DNA of 64,000 nt from a virus. The stretch is from UHGV virus genome UHGV-0167633. One strand, given 5' to 3'. Each line of letters starts with the position of its first letter. Position 1 is the stretch's first letter. The translations under genes were made by a program, and so were the position numbers. Shown piece by piece: positions 5,571 to 15,801 of this stretch. Below the pieces are notes generated by a model, which made no database searches, had not been told where the DNA came from, and saw only the letters and a list, made by a program, of their open reading frames with translations.

Positions 5571-5926
5571 AGCACCACGTCCTGTGTGATAGTTATACCC
5601 CTGATACGAATGGATATTTTCAACTTATCAAAAGCATCTCCCTCGGCTACAGACAAGCCAGAAATCGGTATGTCAGGTAAATCTACCGTCAGTTTTTGCA
5701 ACAGCATTGCCTCAACCGCAATTTGAACATGCGACAAGTTGGTCGGTTCGTGTTTAAACTGCGGTAAAACATTGCCCCATGACGGATCTCCGTATACCTC
5801 ACCCTGATAAGTGTTTAGCCACTCATATAAACGAGCGCCCCAGGCCTCCTCCTGGGACTCATACGTTTTTACGCCGGATAACTCCAGCGTCAGCAAAGGA
5901 TCAATTTCGTTATTGTTGGCCATCAA
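5567..5926 (-). CDS. small baseplate assembly protein
   Basis: 119-aa ORF between Sit and baseplate J-like gene, 4-nt overlaps both sides. Confidence 0.4.
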   Translation of the reverse strand: MMANNNEIDPLLTLELSGVKTYESQEEAWGARLYEWLNTYQGEVYGDPSWGNVLPQFKHEPTNLSHVQIAVEAMLLQKLTVDLPDIPISGLSVAEGDAFDKLKISIRIRGITITQDVVL

Positions 5927-8900
5927 TCAACTCTCGCGTAGTCATTCATCAACGGATCATCAATTGACAGTGGTACCGTGCGCATAACGCCCGGCTGAGG
6001 CGTGCTGACCTTTACGACAGTTCCCTGGCCTTTCGCCGAGTCTTTGGTGTGCTCTTCAATCCTGGCGAGCAATGAGGTCATCTGCGCAAACAGCCGCTTC
6101 GTTTCACCATCAAGTGAAACGGTATTATCAGCCAACTGCATTGTCGGCTTAGCACCGGAACCGCCAAGGTCACTAATAACCTGCCCGTCTATCTGCATAC
6201 GACCGGTTGGTTGCTGCAAATCGTTGGCGACAGTCGTCATCTGGGACGTGGAAGCTGGTTGAGGAGAATTATTTGAGCGCATTCCCCGGGCATTAATGAG
6301 TTTGTCATACAGTCCATCAATCCCCATTTGTGCGCCGAGCTGGTCAAAGTAACTTGAGTTGTTGGCCACCGGACGTGCCTCTTCAACTGGCATAGGTGTA
6401 TCAACATACACATTGCCAGCAGCCGTTGCGGTCCCCTTCCCTCGTGCACGTTCTTCGAGCGTTCCCTGAACGACTTCCCGACGCATACCCCGGCCATTCA
6501 TGAATTTGTTGACCAGATCGTTAACACCAACAGCATTGCCAATTTTGTCTACCAGACCGCCTTTCTCAAACGGGCTATCACCAGGGGTAAACGCCAGGCC
6601 AGTAGACTGATCGATAACAGCGTTATCAGGTATCTTTTCGTGAATTGCTGGTGCGCTATGATCTACCTTAGAGCCATAAACGGCACCATTATTGAGCATC
6701 TGCTGATACCCTCTGACACGAGTAACATATTCGCCGGTACCGGCGACTACTCTCCCCTTATCAACATGCCCCATACCAGCATGATAGGCAGCTATTGCAC
6801 GACCCTGATCACCGTTATAACGGTTCATCAGCATACTTAGGTATCTGGCGGCACCATCAGCTGCTTTTCGTGTATCCATGGCATCAGCATCGCTGAGTCC
6901 AAGATCCTCCCTTGTACCTTTAGTGATCTGAAAAGCCCCAAGGGCAGATGAAAGTTTGTTCCCGTTTTTGTCTACTGGATTTCCAGTTCTCTGGCCTGCA
7001 CTAGACTCTGCGGATGCAACTGCTGACAGAATCCCTTTTTCAAGCCCATACTTACGTTCCAGCTCATCAAAATAATCGGCATTGTCAGAAATCCATTGGT
7101 ATCCGGCAGCATTTAATTTTGGCAAAGAAACATCCTTGCCATTGTTAAATCGACGTTTATCTATCTCATATGCACTTAATGCTTCCTCCTTACCTGTAGC
7201 AGACTGGCCCAAGGCAGCATCAATTGTTTGTGCTGCTTTATTTCCTGTTTCTACGGCATTTGCATTGATAATCTGATTAGCAGTTTCTTTAACTGTTTTA
7301 TTGCTATCTTTCGCCATATCCAGGGCCGCATTTATCACGCGGGCAGCAATATTAGTCTGTTTGGCATCGGATTCAGCTTTAGAATCAGATGTCCCCTGCT
7401 GGCTATTAACCGGAGCTTTTAACTCTGGAGTGATTTCTTTCGCATTAGCCTCGCCGATCGGATTGGGTATTTTTGATACAATCATTGCCGCAGGGGTATT
7501 TTTAACGGCATCAACCGCTGCATCTAATGCTTTACCTGGTAAATTTTTAACCCCATCCCAAATATTACTAGCTGCCTCTTTAATGTGTTTCCCTGGGTTC
7601 TTAATGAAATCAATTGCACTATCAATTGCATCACTGAAAACCTGTTTCAGGTTATCGACAGTAAAGAAGTCTTTGATGGCATCCAGCTTTTCAAGCAGCT
7701 TATTAGATGTATCGCTAAACCATGCTGAAACAGCATCACCAATCTTTGCTGTGTAATCATCGAACTTGGTAGAAATGGTGTCGCCAAGGTTAGAAATATA
7801 TGTTTCTAAGTTGGTAATCCCACTATCAATGGCCTGGGCAATACTTTCCGTCGAAAATGATTGCAACATATTGCCGATATCCTCAAATCCAAGTGATTTG
7901 AGAACATCACCAATAGCACTGCTAATACCAGATACCAGTCCCCCCAAATCAAGAACATTGGCTAACGTATAAGCGGCTTTTTGCTGGAATGATGGATCTT
8001 GTCCTGATTTAAGCCCAAACGCTCGACGTTGCGCTTCTGTATCATTCCAACCGGTTACCGCATCATAAATACCTCCAGCCACTGTGCCGACTAGGGGAAT
8101 TGCGCGTAACGCCCCTTTACCAACTGCCTTTAATCCAAGTTTACCTGCTGCCCGGGCAGCCAAATCTCCGTCTTCATGGGCGAGAGTCTTCTTGCCACCA
8201 CCGCGTAGCATTCCTACAAGTTTCTTTGCCCCCAGAGCGCCAAAAGCGAGTGCTCCAGCTTTTTTCAGCATGCCACGCCCCATTAACAACGACGCGACGC
8301 CACCGGCCCCCTTCCCTAACAGGCTAAATAATTTGGACAGCAAGCCGCCCTTCTTTTTCCCGGTGTTTTTGGCTATCTGATCAAGGGCGCTGAGAATCTT
8401 GTCATTGCCCTCTTTAATTTCGCTGGTCTGATCCTGAAGTTCCTGAACCGTCCGTTTTTGGGTGTTAACCTGAACGACATCGGCACTATTTTGCGATTTA
8501 CGCCTAAAAAAACCTTTTCTACGGCTGTTATCGTCATTGCCACGAATCACATCGGCAATAGACTTTCTGGCACCATTAAGCGATCCACCAACTTCTTTTG
8601 ATATCCCGCCAAGCTCCTTCCCTGCGGCCCACAATGGACCAGCAACGGCATAACCTAACGCATCGACGGCGCGAGTCTCTGAAGGGTTACCTATGCCTTC
8701 AGCTACTTTTGACAGTTTTTTTAATAAACCTGATTCAGCATTTAGACGCTCATCATCCTCTTTGCGCCTGGCCTTTTCAGCACGTTCAGCACGGGCATCT
8801 TCCGCTGCGGCCTTACTCCCTGGCTTTCCAATAAAACGACCACGCGCATCGCGTTGGTTTTGGCTTTTTTGCGCACCGCCTTTTTGACCGAACATTTCGC

Positions 8901-9297
8901 GAGCGTGTTCGGCTGCTTCGGTCCGTTGCGCCTTTACATCTTCTGTTATAGCCTTCTTGCGTCGTTTTTTACCCTTTCGCGTAGTTGATTTGGCCTGCGG
9001 TTCCTGTAGAGCAACATCCTCCTGAACTACACGAGAAACGTCCCCTAAATTAAGCCGTTTCATTGCCTCAACAATAGGGGCCACTGATGGCGCATTGGCC
9101 ACAAAGTCTGGCCTGGAATTTTCGATTGTGCGATTTAATGCCGACACACTGTGAGAGACAGGATCAACAGTTGCAACGCGTCCCCCTTTCAAATCTTCAA
9201 CAGCTTCCCGGATACCTGCAAGCTCTTCCAGCTCTTTTGCGCTGGCGGTTTCAACTGTCCTTATAACATCGTCAATGTTGGCGTTTTTTCTTTCCAT
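5923..9297 (-). CDS. sit: Sit-like structural injection transglycosylase / tape-measure-type protein
   Basis: 1124-aa ORF; central soluble lytic transglycosylase motif (ES..GQ...LGAFQ...AYHAG); Lys/Ala/Gly-rich low-complexity stretches; position matches P1 sit. Confidence 0.8.
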   Translation of the reverse strand: MERKNANIDDVIRTVETASAKELEELAGIREAVEDLKGGRVATVDPVSHSVSALNRTIENSRPDFVANAPSVAPIVEAMKRLNLGDVSRVVQEDVALQEPQAKSTTRKGKKRRKKAITEDVKAQRTEAAEHAREMFGQKGGAQKSQNQRDARGRFIGKPGSKAAAEDARAERAEKARRKEDDERLNAESGLLKKLSKVAEGIGNPSETRAVDALGYAVAGPLWAAGKELGGISKEVGGSLNGARKSIADVIRGNDDNSRRKGFFRRKSQNSADVVQVNTQKRTVQELQDQTSEIKEGNDKILSALDQIAKNTGKKKGGLLSKLFSLLGKGAGGVASLLMGRGMLKKAGALAFGALGAKKLVGMLRGGGKKTLAHEDGDLAARAAGKLGLKAVGKGALRAIPLVGTVAGGIYDAVTGWNDTEAQRRAFGLKSGQDPSFQQKAAYTLANVLDLGGLVSGISSAIGDVLKSLGFEDIGNMLQSFSTESIAQAIDSGITNLETYISNLGDTISTKFDDYTAKIGDAVSAWFSDTSNKLLEKLDAIKDFFTVDNLKQVFSDAIDSAIDFIKNPGKHIKEAASNIWDGVKNLPGKALDAAVDAVKNTPAAMIVSKIPNPIGEANAKEITPELKAPVNSQQGTSDSKAESDAKQTNIAARVINAALDMAKDSNKTVKETANQIINANAVETGNKAAQTIDAALGQSATGKEEALSAYEIDKRRFNNGKDVSLPKLNAAGYQWISDNADYFDELERKYGLEKGILSAVASAESSAGQRTGNPVDKNGNKLSSALGAFQITKGTREDLGLSDADAMDTRKAADGAARYLSMLMNRYNGDQGRAIAAYHAGMGHVDKGRVVAGTGEYVTRVRGYQQMLNNGAVYGSKVDHSAPAIHEKIPDNAVIDQSTGLAFTPGDSPFEKGGLVDKIGNAVGVNDLVNKFMNGRGMRREVVQGTLEERARGKGTATAAGNVYVDTPMPVEEARPVANNSSYFDQLGAQMGIDGLYDKLINARGMRSNNSPQPASTSQMTTVANDLQQPTGRMQIDGQVISDLGGSGAKPTMQLADNTVSLDGETKRLFAQMTSLLARIEEHTKDSAKGQGTVVKVSTPQPGVMRTVPLSIDDPLMNDYARVD

Positions 9298-11617: not shown

Positions 11618-12691
11618 TCAAGCCTTAAGAGGCTTTGTGTATGTTCGTGTAATCCAACCAGTAATAAACTCATCCCCTGATTTAACCTGCACGTAAAGCC
11701 ATTGACGATCTTTCTTATCTAAAATAGCAACAATTGTGTTTTTGCCAATGCATTCAATCACTTCACTATTTAAAGAAGGGCCGACATGCAACCTTACGTT
11801 ATCACCTGTTATAGCTCTAAAATTATTAAGATCCTCCCACTGAATATCTTTATTTTCTTGTGTTAGCTTTTGCTTAGATATTGGCTTATCCTCATTTAGA
11901 GATAGAAGATATGATTCCATCTTGTAAATTTGCGATAATGTCTTTTCTTTTGCATAATCAGTTATAGCGCCAAGCACCACTTGATAAAAAATCCACAGAA
12001 GGAAGATCTGAATAGGAGAAGGAAGCGCCTTAAATGAATCAAAAAACGTCGAACTAGATTTATTAAATCCTTTGTTTTGATGCTCACTTTCGGTATGCGC
12101 TGATTTTATAGAATCATTAGCATAAGCCTGCGCGATAGTAACAAGCCCAAGCTCTACTACTTGCTCTAATAATACACTTCTTGTTTTATTATACTGCTTT
12201 ATTACTTCTTTAATATCTTTGCTTATCTTAATTTTGTAATTTATATTAGAGTGTAATTCTTTAAATACCTCCTCCATATTATTTAAGCCAGCTATCTTAT
12301 TAATGGCTTCTGAGTGTTTTCGTAACGGCATAGCCATTTCAGCTTGATTTTTAATTATTTGAATATGCTCATTTGCATCACTGGGAAAAGCCGCCTGATA
12401 CTGTTTCTGTAAAAATACCATTTGTTCACGAAACTGGTGTGCAATTCTCGTAACTTTTGGTAAAGACTCAAGTTCTTTTCGAAAACAATCATTAATTAAT
12501 TCTTGTTTTTTAACTGTTCCAAACTGTTTAACTAAACTCTTGTAAATATATTCTGAATTTAATAAACCACTTATCTTTTTATGCCTCACTCCTTTAATTT
12601 CATTTAAATAATCATAAAAGGCAGTGCCTTCAGCTTTATTATTAGAGTTAAGCGAAATGTGTTTAATATCCTTCACTTTATTCACCGTCAT
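11618..12691 (-). CDS. membrane protein with C-terminal SH3b-like domain (AT-rich accessory gene)
   Basis: 357-aa ORF; one predicted TM segment (IQIFLLWIFYQVVLGAI); C-terminal beta-rich segment resembling bacterial SH3; strongly AT-rich relative to flanks. Confidence 0.5.
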   Translation of the reverse strand: MTVNKVKDIKHISLNSNNKAEGTAFYDYLNEIKGVRHKKISGLLNSEYIYKSLVKQFGTVKKQELINDCFRKELESLPKVTRIAHQFREQMVFLQKQYQAAFPSDANEHIQIIKNQAEMAMPLRKHSEAINKIAGLNNMEEVFKELHSNINYKIKISKDIKEVIKQYNKTRSVLLEQVVELGLVTIAQAYANDSIKSAHTESEHQNKGFNKSSSTFFDSFKALPSPIQIFLLWIFYQVVLGAITDYAKEKTLSQIYKMESYLLSLNEDKPISKQKLTQENKDIQWEDLNNFRAITGDNVRLHVGPSLNSEVIECIGKNTIVAILDKKDRQWLYVQVKSGDEFITGWITRTYTKPLKA

Positions 12692-13184
12692 CTTGTTTTA
12701 AACACCCGTCATTTTTAGCTTCTGTATAAATACTGGAAATACCATCCAGAGTGAATGATGTGATTCGACTCGAACCGATATATACATCTATGTTTTTTTC
12801 ATTTGTAGATGACACTGCCTTCCAAAATGAATACCATTCCCTACGATTAGGAGCAGTGTTTTGCGTGCCAATATTAAAACTATCCGGGCCAACAATTAAA
12901 GTAATTACATCTGCTTTACGTGATATTGTGTCGCGTGTAGAAAAATCGGCATTCTCTTTTCCTCCGCTTACATACAAATTTCTTCCAGCGATATGATCTT
13001 CTGAACCTTCCCTTGCTCCAGCATCACAAGAAAAGTTAATTGTGTAACCATCGTCATTGGTTGCAGAGATTTCTCTCCACCCTTGCTCACCTCCTACCGT
13101 CCAAACGGTAGAACCTGCCATTGCTGATAATGGCAGAAAAGAGGACATTAATAAAAAGCTATACAATGACTTATACAATTTCAT
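12678..13184 (-). CDS. secreted protein with signal peptide (AT-rich accessory gene)
   Basis: 168-aa ORF; N-terminal signal peptide (MKLYKSLYSFLLMSSFLPLSAMA); overlaps downstream gene start by 14 nt. Confidence 0.5.
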   Translation of the reverse strand: MKLYKSLYSFLLMSSFLPLSAMAGSTVWTVGGEQGWREISATNDDGYTINFSCDAGAREGSEDHIAGRNLYVSGGKENADFSTRDTISRKADVITLIVGPDSFNIGTQNTAPNRREWYSFWKAVSSTNEKNIDVYIGSSRITSFTLDGISSIYTEAKNDGCLKQDDGE

Positions 13185-13272
13185 ATTTTTATCCTTTTGT
13201 TTTTAGATATTATAGGCATAGTCCATATTGTTAGATCCACTATGCCCAGAGAATTTAATATTATTTATTAAA

Positions 13273-13791
13273 TTATGGGGCTACACCCGGCCCCCTAGCT
13301 CGTTCTTCAAGCGTACCCTGTACGTTTTGATGGCGCATTCCTGGGGCATTTCTTATTGAGTCAATGCCATTTCTTCCAACATCTTCTTTATTAACGGCAT
13401 TGCTCGCCACCAGCACACCCCAGCTAGGGATAGCAAAATCAGGAGCGGTTTCGCATGCCTTTACCATATAATCGAAAGTGCTTCGATTGATCTCGTTTGC
13501 GTCGGGATTTAATAGGCGAGAATATTGATATTTAGCATTTTCGTTGGTTGCGACTTTATATAGTTCTTGCTGCACCATCGCTTCAGAAAGTTTAAGACGT
13601 TTCATATCTGACAGTAACTTCTTGCGCATGGATTCGTCTTGACTGACAGCAAAGCCGTAAACGTGCCCAAGGTATTTCGTATAATCGGTACAAATCTCCT
13701 TCACGCTTGATGCTGCATTAACAGTCCCAGCCATAAATAATAACGGTAGTAATAGTTTTCTCATTATAACCTCACCTGCCTTATAACTCAT
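13273..13791 (-). CDS. periplasmic protein carrying a Sit-like C-terminal motif (possible superinfection-exclusion protein)
   Basis: 172-aa ORF with signal peptide; last ~27 aa (NAPGMRHQNVQGTLEERARGPGVAP) closely match an internal Sit segment (NGRGMRREVVQGTLEERARGKGTA); occupies the position of the P1 sim locus. Confidence 0.5.
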   Translation of the reverse strand: MSYKAGEVIMRKLLLPLLFMAGTVNAASSVKEICTDYTKYLGHVYGFAVSQDESMRKKLLSDMKRLKLSEAMVQQELYKVATNENAKYQYSRLLNPDANEINRSTFDYMVKACETAPDFAIPSWGVLVASNAVNKEDVGRNGIDSIRNAPGMRHQNVQGTLEERARGPGVAP

Positions 13792-14191: not shown

Positions 14192-14413
14192 ATGGTTAAT
14201 GCCAATCCTTGCGCGCGCCCTGAATTTATCTGGCGTTTCTATTCCTGTAAAAAACACCACTATCACTTCGTTATCGCAGCAACAGAAGACGAAGCACGCT
14301 CTCAATTGCCTGATGGCCCCTGCATTTTTACTGCCCGTTTTTCTACTGACTCGCGCAATTCACTTAGTTACTGGAACCTCCCCTTCTCTGCCGACGTTCA
14401 GGGGGGTTTATGA
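14192..14413 (+). CDS. icd: Icd-like small protein upstream of ant
   Basis: 73-aa ORF with RBS GAGG, stop overlapping ant start (ATGA); size and position as P1 icd. Confidence 0.45.
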   Translation: MVNANPCARPEFIWRFYSCKKHHYHFVIAATEDEARSQLPDGPCIFTARFSTDSRNSLSYWNLPFSADVQGGL

Positions 14414-15801
14414 AAACACCTCTCGTCACCCGTAATGAAATAGCCGAAGCGATCGCCTTGCATACAATCTGTATGCCGACACGGGAGATCCCCGGCGCAA
14501 TTGCTAACTATTTCATGATAACCAGGCGTTTTTATACCCGAACAGATAAGGCTGTGATCAACAGGCTACTGATAGCCGAGATCAGGGATTATTTGATTGA
14601 ACAAGGACGTCTACGTTACGCAACAGTGGCAGCAGAAATGAGAAAGGAGGCACATAGAATGACCAGTAATAATTTGAATGTTAAAAAACCAGAATCTGTT
14701 GCTTCAGCTACGCCATCACCAGCTGTGAATGTTATCTCCAACACTGGAGACACAATCGACAGCCAGACGCTGTTAAAGATGGTTAATGAGGCGCGCAAGC
14801 TATGTGGGGAAAATGAGATCCGTAATAACGATTTTCTCAATAGAATTAAGGATGAACTTGATGGGGAATTTTACGAAACTTTCGTAAAATCCCATGGCAC
14901 AAGGGCCGGGCGCTCTTTTGAGGTCATAACCATGACCTACAAACAAGCCCTGCGCGTTGCTGCTCGCGAATCGAAAGCGGTCCGCCGTTCGCTACATACC
15001 ATGATTCAGTCATTGGAACCTATAAATGTAGAAAATCAGCCTGATGAAATTCCCGTTCTGGAATGGCAGGGAGTACGCGTCGTGACAACCGAGACTCTTG
15101 CTAGAGGGTATGGCACTACACCTATTCGTATTCAGCAGAACTACAATCGCAATGAAGAACGATTTGTAGAGGGTAAACACTTCTTTAAAATCAAAGGAGA
15201 TGAGATAAAAAGTTTGCGACTATCTTTTAGCGAGTTGCAAATTTCCCCCAAGACCAGATCCTTAATACTCTGGACCGAACGCGGAGCGGCACGCATGTCT
15301 AAGATCGTAGACACAGAGCAAGCGTGGGCATTCTTTGAAAAACTGGAAGACAGCTACTTCCGGCAAAAAGAACAGCAACCGGTCACAATCCCCCAAACAT
15401 TACCAGAAGCTCTACGCCTGGCTGCCGAGTTGGCAGAGCAGAAAATGCAGTTGGAACAACAGCTGGTGGCCGCAGCCCCTAAAGTAGATTTTGCCGACCG
15501 GGTATCAGTGGCTAATGGAATCCTGATCGGGAACTTTGCAAAGGTCGTTGGACTTAAGCAAAACGCCCTTTTCTCATGGTTGCGCCAGAACGGCATTCTC
15601 ATGGCTTTTGGTGCGCGCAAAAACGTACCGCGCCAGCAGTACATTAACGCCGGGTATTTCACGGTGAAAGAAGTGGTGCTGGATGATGAAAATGGCTACC
15701 AGATACGGCTGACGCCCCAATTAACGGGTAAAGGCCAGCAGTGGTTAACTCGCAAGCTACTTGATGCTGGCTTGTTAAAACCGGTGGCGTCCTTGTCTTA
15801 A
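14410..15801 (+). CDS. ant: antirepressor Ant (Bro-N/KilA-C type)
   Basis: 463-aa ORF; C-terminal KilA-C-like block (DFADRVSVANGILIGNFAKVVGLKQNALFSWLRQNGIL) shared with downstream kilA paralog. Confidence 0.75.
   Translation: MKTPLVTRNEIAEAIALHTICMPTREIPGAIANYFMITRRFYTRTDKAVINRLLIAEIRDYLIEQGRLRYATVAAEMRKEAHRMTSNNLNVKKPESVASATPSPAVNVISNTGDTIDSQTLLKMVNEARKLCGENEIRNNDFLNRIKDELDGEFYETFVKSHGTRAGRSFEVITMTYKQALRVAARESKAVRRSLHTMIQSLEPINVENQPDEIPVLEWQGVRVVTTETLARGYGTTPIRIQQNYNRNEERFVEGKHFFKIKGDEIKSLRLSFSELQISPKTRSLILWTERGAARMSKIVDTEQAWAFFEKLEDSYFRQKEQQPVTIPQTLPEALRLAAELAEQKMQLEQQLVAAAPKVDFADRVSVANGILIGNFAKVVGLKQNALFSWLRQNGILMAFGARKNVPRQQYINAGYFTVKEVVLDDENGYQIRLTPQLTGKGQQWLTRKLLDAGLLKPVASLS

Follow-up and report, generated by a model that had tools for sequence, protein, structure and literature searches.

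A predicted secreted protein of the sim locus of P1-like phage-plasmids shares a linear motif with the tape-measure protein Sit

The classical sim function of phage P1 reportedly maps to simC (work ascribed to Maillou and Dreiseikelmann in 1990 and to Lobocka in 2004). In phage T4, Sp is an inhibitor of the gp5 tail lysozyme and thus a periplasm-facing exclusion factor against a cell-wall-degrading tail component, and HK97 gp15 is said (Cumby and colleagues, 2012) to be an envelope protein that blocks genome delivery at the tape-measure step. T4 Imm, HK97 gp15 and the Sie-type proteins are phage-encoded inner-membrane proteins of the envelope; they act at the tape-measure step to block genome delivery and contain no sequence copied from the tape measure. 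Direct binding of T4 Imm to the tape-measure protein gp29 is a precedent for exclusion proteins acting on the tape measure (bioRxiv 10.64898/2026.03.06.709160). P1 Sim (SimC) is thought to prevent DNA entry by stopping incoming P1 DNA after adsorption (PMC8546580), and Sit is a tape-measure protein with a muralytic domain near its C-terminus (PMC9024508). P1-like phage-plasmids have eight hypervariable regions, the sim region among them (PMC9603915). A CRISPRi screen of P1 found simA, simB and simC to be non-essential, which says nothing on exclusion.

The DNA analysed here, a stretch of 64,000 nucleotides (the window), is a P1-like phage-plasmid whose gene order, compared with the P1 annotation and with nine relatives, is 16/bplA, pmgA, sit, pmgB, tub, pmgC, a three-gene sim cassette and c4-icd-ant. 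The cassette occupies 11618..13791 on the minus strand with a simA-like ORF as its first gene, which lies between pmgC and the c4-icd-ant immunity region (plus strand) and is transcribed away from c4. This gene is an ortholog of P1 simA (its first ~55 codons and the sequence upstream of them are ~95% identical in nucleotides), in agreement with the sim position assigned to it in an earlier sequence-only reading of the same DNA. The simB and simC genes of the P1 Sim exclusion system are absent from the window, and P1 SimB and SimC match none of its ORFs. SimC and the SimA of the window are alike in being prophage-encoded, located at the same locus and secreted (as predicted here), but they have no sequence similarity to each other and SimC shares no segment with Sit. 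Behind icd, the first antirepressor gene (14410-15801, plus strand) encodes 463 aa, compared with 1044 bp (~347 aa) for P1 ant1; the immunity region that adjoins the sim cassette is thus a variant allele too.

The longest ORF of the simA-like gene (13273..13791, minus strand) encodes 172 aa, and residue numbers below follow this form. An ATG at 13764 is preceded, 5-12 nt upstream, by the Shine-Dalgarno sequence AGGTGAGG, so the true product (13273..13764, minus strand, starting MRKLLL) probably has 163 aa, beginning with MRKLLLPLLFMAGTVNA followed by ASS. By direct reading, MRKLLLPLLFMAGTVNA (13714..13764, minus strand) has the n-h-c pattern of a Sec-type signal peptide with predicted cleavage between VNA and ASS and has no lipobox cysteine; residues N24, A25, S27 and S28 are invariant across 22 homologs. 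Behind it lies an orphan all-helical N-terminal domain (residues 28-135; 13387..13710, minus strand) with two invariant cysteines, C33 and C112. The signal peptide ending in VNA before ASS and the two cysteines make the protein look secreted, as the sequence-only reading had held. The 163-aa product is identical to a protein cluster of 153 member sequences (P0003), and this allele, with its three-gene cassette, is present in 34 plasmids. At the family level, the ORF is matched by phrog_3933 (the SimA family; 'simA domain protein' in RefSeq) with E=2e-114 over profile positions 1-162 of 213, and its protein is 97-99% identical to clusters P0001 and P0003.

A PTP-like phytase assignment (PF14566) for SimA was rejected: the profile scored 26.8 bits against a cutoff of 27 (positions 46-132 of 158), and by direct reading the catalytic CX5R loop is missing, the single candidate being CETAPDF. 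Nor does SimA belong with Imm-type proteins, given that its signal peptide is its only hydrophobic segment and that it has no match to such families in PADLOC, Pfam or NCBIfam. In contrast to Imm, gp15 and the Sie-type proteins, SimA is predicted to be a soluble periplasmic protein and carries a copy of a tape-measure motif, which implies competition or mimicry rather than a dedicated binder. T4 Sp and SimA are not homologous.

The similarity to Sit lies in the C-terminal part of SimA. BLASTP of the 172-aa ORF against the 1124-aa Sit returned one significant match, between SimA residues 131-171 and Sit residues 921-957 (21/41 identical, E=1e-7). Direct reading of the C-terminal stretch singled out in the sequence-only reading gave the 17 of 24 identical residues claimed there, and its Sit counterpart is encoded at 6427..6498, consistent with the earlier placement near 6420-6510. 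The Smith-Waterman score for SimA and Sit was 90, compared with 38.6 +/- 5.5 for 1000 shuffles (z ~9); as the highest shuffled score was 65, the low-complexity coincidence that the earlier reading had named as the outcome that would speak against it was not borne out. When all six-frame ORFs of the window were compared, Sit was the sole cross-match of SimA (E 5e-6; E 2.5e-7 with the full-length relative). The Sit family profile phrog_2533 is matched by SimA only at positions 928-963 (E 3e-5, or E 1e-7 for a 215-aa relative), and Sit in turn matches the SimA family phrog_3933 (E 3e-4); because the two PHROG profiles were built separately, the match is confirmed in both directions. On these alignments, we consider the shared module to be real. 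BLASTP, Smith-Waterman and the profiles support its placement in SimA at residues 131-169, NAVNKEDVGRNGIDSIRNAPGMRHQNVQGTLEERARGPG (13285..13401, minus strand), with the motif core NAPGMRHQ at 13327..13350 (minus strand).

At the DNA level the two copies are well diverged: 56/99 nt are identical over the motif, and 10/17 identical residues are written in different codons. The view of the sequence-only reading that this is an old shared module and not a recent duplication is upheld by the diverged DNA and codon usage. Recent gene conversion between sit and simA is likewise ruled out, with 52-56/99 nt identical and most shared residues differing in codon.

Sit of the window (5923..9297, minus strand; 1124 aa) is a tape-measure protein or structural injection transglycosylase by its full-length match to phrog_2533 and by the P1 annotation. 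Its SLT lytic transglycosylase domain spans residues 742-847 (6757..7074, minus strand; Pfam PF01464, E=1.5e-14), and the motif follows 60-90 residues past this domain, ahead of the strongly conserved C-terminal 110 residues. Copy 1 (residues 912-957, KGGLVDKIGNAVGVNDLVNKFMNGRGMRREVVQGTLEERARGKGTA; 6427..6564, minus strand) is kept in all Sit orthologs examined, among which G, M, R, G, R, A and G are invariant; in Escherichia Sit it has drifted to NGRGMRRE. The second related copy reported earlier also exists (residues 985-1007, DQLGAQMGIDGLYDKLINARGMR; 6277..6345, minus strand; internal alignment score 59). It is an insertion confined to Escherichia-type Sit and was not found in the Salmonella-, Klebsiella- and Cronobacter-type Sit proteins examined.

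Two distinct SLT modules occur among the Sit orthologs, one shared by the window, P0028 and P0032 and the other, with a 5-residue insertion, by P0029, P0033 and P0034. The flanks of this region (window 6757-7140), motif included, are conserved despite the module swap, so the catalytic domain of Sit has itself been exchanged by recombination.

SimA and the P1-type tape-measure proteins (phrog_2533) thus have in common a module of ~40 residues, which in Sit stands behind the SLT domain. SimA otherwise differs from Sit in having no SLT domain (none was found with Pfam), no tape-measure helices and no conserved Sit C-terminus. Judged from sequence, SimA is not a form of Sit but another protein, with a single linear motif borrowed from it. 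In an AlphaFold2 model built on the SimA family alignment, the helical domain (residues 28-135) is confident (pLDDT 83-94). The sequence modelled was the 220-aa relative P0001; its residues 140-177, which correspond to GIDSIR...RARGPG and so to most of the module, have pLDDT <50, and the C-terminal helix is weakly predicted; in the model the motif region is probably a flexible linker behind the helical domain. An AlphaFold model of Sit 720-1124 is confident for the SLT domain alone, and the motif has no confident structure there either.

The consensus of Sit orthologs and SimA variants reads NAPGMRHQxVxG[TS][LM]xERA[RY]GxG and follows a loosely conserved lead-in of ~20 residues. A 55-column profile of the motif found 11 matches at E<=1e-3 among 1.84 billion representative proteins, namely Sit-type tape-measure proteins, SimA members, fragments of both and one unrelated repeat protein; they include a distant 1367-aa Sit with two copies and a divergent 176-aa SimA. 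With tblastn against 50,697 phage records the motif matched P1-like sit genes only, and a word-index search with a 71-aa Sit segment returned 4 fragments only. A scan of 185,579 species genomes for the codon pattern of NAPGMRHQ gave 13 matches, compared with ~9 expected by chance on a rough estimate, the meaningful ones being Escherichia SimA and a P1-like contig of Candidatus Pantoea alvi with the motif in both Sit and SimA. Occurrence of the motif outside P1-like elements was therefore rejected, as the scans yielded Sit, SimA and chance matches (HTNAPGMRHQ in KdpD and the repeat protein).

The exact octapeptide was also seen within ELAHTNAPGMRHQKRYEDIEEIL in two Lachnospiraceae/Mediterraneibacter sequences (L024 and L026), a context that we take to be typical of KdpD-type sensor kinases; we judged this to be an unrelated chance match in a probably cytoplasmic protein. 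P1-like SimA or Sit also appears under Firmicutes names, in a 2.8-kb contig of a 'Candidatus Paenibacillus intestinavium' MAG (L018) and as a partial 'Bacillus altitudinis' protein (P0037). These records are almost certainly mis-binned or contaminant contigs.

Two divergent P1-like elements from metagenome contigs (L014 and L015) carry a GMRHQV motif once or twice in Sit, the 1367-aa Sit of L015 having two copies ~75 residues apart, and have no sim or immI genes between pmgC and the gene preceding it. Since elements with no sim locus keep the motif in Sit, Sit is the older carrier and SimA acquired its copy, and the motif must serve Sit independently of SimA. Between SimA lineages whose N-terminal domains differ with dN 0.25-0.3 and saturated dS, the core NAPGMRHQ agrees at 8/8 residues, while 3-6/8 of its codons carry synonymous differences. 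A core that stays invariant when synonymous sites are saturated indicates that the motif is under purifying selection. In Candidatus Pantoea alvi the motif is retained in both proteins with 52/99 identical nucleotides. Some SimA proteins have only the GMR[HQ]Q core left, the VQGTLxERA half being replaced; these are the Klebsiella/Cronobacter-type ones and part of the Salmonella-type ones.

SimA mostly retains the ancestral motif consensus. A permutation test of SimA-Sit motif co-variation over the five lineages with the long motif was not significant (14/120 permutations reached the observed score), nor was own-pair similarity significantly enriched in a 30-residue SimA-Sit similarity matrix of 8 loci. 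Single own-pair likenesses, such as G-S-M-A in both Pantoea proteins (in different codons) and APGMRHQ in both proteins of L006 and L012, are suggestive, but not sufficient for co-variation.

Comparison with P1 explains why this similarity stays out of sight in the type phage. Megablast of the window against P1 gave ~95% identity from 13625 on, covering the first ~55 ORF codons and the upstream region that correspond to P1 simA, and the match ends at 13625, inside simA. P1 SimA (P1_gp043, 'putative superimmunity accessory function') has 52 aa, agrees with the window protein at every one of its first 45 residues and ends in AFAINDY and a stop. It shares with the window protein the locus, the promoter region, the signal peptide and the first ~46 residues at ~95% nucleotide identity, but is truncated, with the Sit-like motif and most of the helical domain missing. 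P1 simA corresponds to 47912-48070 of NC_005856 (3509-3667 of the P1 locus extracted here, L001), its counterpart in the window is 13625-13791, and in P1 the simB/simC cassette begins 3 nt past the simA stop codon. By sequence comparison, P1 simA is thus the 5' remnant of a gene of ~215 codons, cut by insertion of the simB/simC cassette; this truncation hides the Sit similarity in P1 itself. The remnant-only form is found in about 150/267 P1-like plasmids. The 215-220-aa form is present in 84/267, in phage vB_EcoM-Ro157c2YLVW and in cluster P0001 (906 member sequences), and divergent forms occur in Salmonella, Klebsiella, Cronobacter and Pantoea. As to the earlier question whether sim-locus proteins of other P1-like phages carry the same tail, the long-form relatives have the motif, and P1 SimA does not.

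The window allele has a junction of its own. The megablast match to Ro157c2YLVW starts at query base 1786, that is at window position 13285; in the last stretch of the gene (13273..13287, minus strand) homology to full-length genes stops at 13285, and only V-A-P and a stop follow ...EERARGPG, whereas Ro157 SimA continues for 46 residues beyond the junction. The best explanation of these alignments is that the window ORF is a full-length SimA family allele altered by recombination at its 3' end. As the junction falls right behind the motif, the motif is C-terminal only in the window allele, so that the earlier description of it as a C-terminal tail is right for this gene and not for its relatives, which add 20-90 residues of variable tail. 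At least three unrelated tail types follow the motif in relatives: a helical one, one with one or two Cys...Cys hairpins, and a short Pro-rich end. All three begin behind the motif, which argues that selection maintains it and speaks against a neutral relic.

In the Salmonella-, Klebsiella- and Cronobacter-type SimA proteins the second motif half is replaced by one or two units of ~35 residues with the form K-x-C...(~28 residues)...C, seen among L003, L004, L006, L007, L008 and L012; the Salmonella protein P0021 carries two in tandem. These units are probably disulfide-bonded helical hairpins.

The other two genes of the window cassette encode a YfjT-like partner and an SH3 protein. The partner (12678..13184, minus strand; 168 aa) has a signal peptide, matches phrog_3429 (E=1.6e-71) and is 29% identical to Ro157 gp34 (E=2e-22); homologs at its position in relatives carry the precomputed Pfam assignment PF27224 (YfjT). 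The third gene (11618..12691, minus strand; 357 aa; phrog_7086) encodes a membrane protein that has a single hydrophobic segment and ends in a bacterial SH3 domain (Pfam SH3_3, E=3e-6), and accompanies the window-type SimA allele in 14 loci. In a survey of 79 loci, 52 of the 55 motif-bearing SimA genes stood next to a YfjT-like gene (two had no partner detected and one had simC), and the other 24 loci had the remnant SimA with simB, with or without simC. This pairing suggests that the YfjT-like gene and motif-bearing SimA form a two-protein unit. SimA with the YfjT-like gene and simB/simC are near-exclusive alternatives at one locus, a pattern expected of cassettes that solve one task in different ways, though as evidence for this it is circumstantial. 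PADLOC-DB had no match to SimA, to the YfjT-like and SH3 proteins or to P1 SimB and SimC, and no NCBIfam model matched any cassette gene. SimB, SimC, the YfjT-like and the SH3 proteins have no segment in common with any window ORF, and mimicry as a general property of the sim locus was rejected on this ground.

The tape measure of both contractile and non-contractile tails has its C-terminal end at the tail tip, and this end leaves first, so the SLT domain of Sit and the motif behind it are expected to enter the periplasm at infection. We propose that, when a P1-type tail contracts, the C-terminal part of Sit would be released first into the periplasm, where it would meet SimA made by the resident prophage-plasmid and exported there. 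SimA would display the Sit motif on a flexible linker and occupy the periplasmic or envelope partner of that motif, which could be a host factor or, while the channel assembles, Sit itself, and delivery of the genome of superinfecting P1-like phages would be impaired as a result. It would probably act together with the adjacent YfjT-like periplasmic protein, as an alternative cassette to P1 simB/simC. We infer, in line with this proposal, that SimA would be expressed in lysogens, exported, bound to a partner and active in exclusion. Competitive mimicry of this kind is, tentatively, the most likely mechanism suggested by the sequences. It is favoured by a match that is significant and reciprocal at the profile level, by the restriction of the motif to Sit and SimA, by purifying selection, by the low-confidence and probably flexible motif region, by the secretion signals, by the identity of the sim locus and by the alternation of cassettes. 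The more specific version, in which SimA mimics the tape measure and saturates an entry factor engaged by the Sit motif, thereby excluding P1-like phages, is possible and rather doubtful. The decoy mechanism put forward in the sequence-only reading is plausible, but three points weigh against a simple form of it: sim reportedly maps to simC, absent here, P1 SimA has no motif, and co-variation is not significant. The same points count against competitive mimicry, as do the SimA lineages that keep only the GMR[HQ]Q core, the low-confidence models of the motif in both proteins and the negative PADLOC and NCBIfam searches. With no motif in P1 SimA and no simC here, the classical Sim phenotype must be independent of the motif.

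Other accounts of the shared segment have to be set against competitive mimicry. SimA might bind incoming Sit directly instead of competing for a third partner, either with its helical domain inhibiting the SLT or channel-forming part of Sit or, if the motif is a self-association element of a trimeric or hexameric Sit, as a poison subunit; we regard direct binding as unlikely. A similarly low probability attaches to the motif being an address or handling signal that each protein needs for itself (recognised by a protease or chaperone of the periplasm, or binding peptidoglycan), with the function of SimA unrelated to Sit and its real role lying in envelope modification, lysogenic conversion or a task tied to the YfjT-like partner. 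A short conserved motif within a low-confidence, probably flexible region is a typical recognition site, and the SimA motif is nearer to the ancestral consensus than to the resident Sit, which would be expected if the two proteins faced the same conserved host component. A general host factor, however, predicts the motif in host or other phage proteins, yet the 1.84e9 representatives contained no such protein and only chance matches (e.g. KdpD) came out of the genome scan; the position at an exclusion locus would moreover be a coincidence.

It is very improbable that the segment is a functionless relic of sit captured by illegitimate recombination in a hypervariable locus. The sim locus is indeed a recombination hotspot, with one junction 3 codons past the motif in the window and another cutting P1 simA at about codon 46, but recombination has repeatedly spared the motif (the three unrelated tail types all start after it), and SimA from Escherichia, Salmonella, Klebsiella, Cronobacter and Pantoea has kept the core unchanged despite saturated synonymous divergence. 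The probability that the match is a chance or low-complexity coincidence is close to nil: it is short (~40 residues), but its E value of 1e-7, its z of ~9 against shuffles, its reciprocity between separately built profiles and the conservation in both families all speak against chance.

A literature search found no paper on SimA-Sit similarity or on a tape-measure mimic as an exclusion factor, and the shared module has apparently been undescribed until now in a well-studied phage lineage. P1 has long served as a model phage, and in Enterobacteriaceae resistance genes are often carried by P1-like phage-plasmids. With this finding, Sit gains a defined linear motif that is conserved and lineage-restricted, and a predicted secreted protein of the exclusion locus is seen to display the same motif under purifying selection. 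It also corrects the annotation of the locus, with P1 simA as the remnant of a larger gene and SimA with the YfjT-like protein, not simB/simC, as the common natural cassette. If competitive mimicry is true, the motif peptide NAPGMRHQNVQGTLEERARGPG or the SimA linker would be usable as bait for the part of the envelope required in P1 DNA delivery, a component that the literature search did not find to be known, and exclusion by motif mimicry would be a new principle among the mechanisms that target tape-measure proteins.
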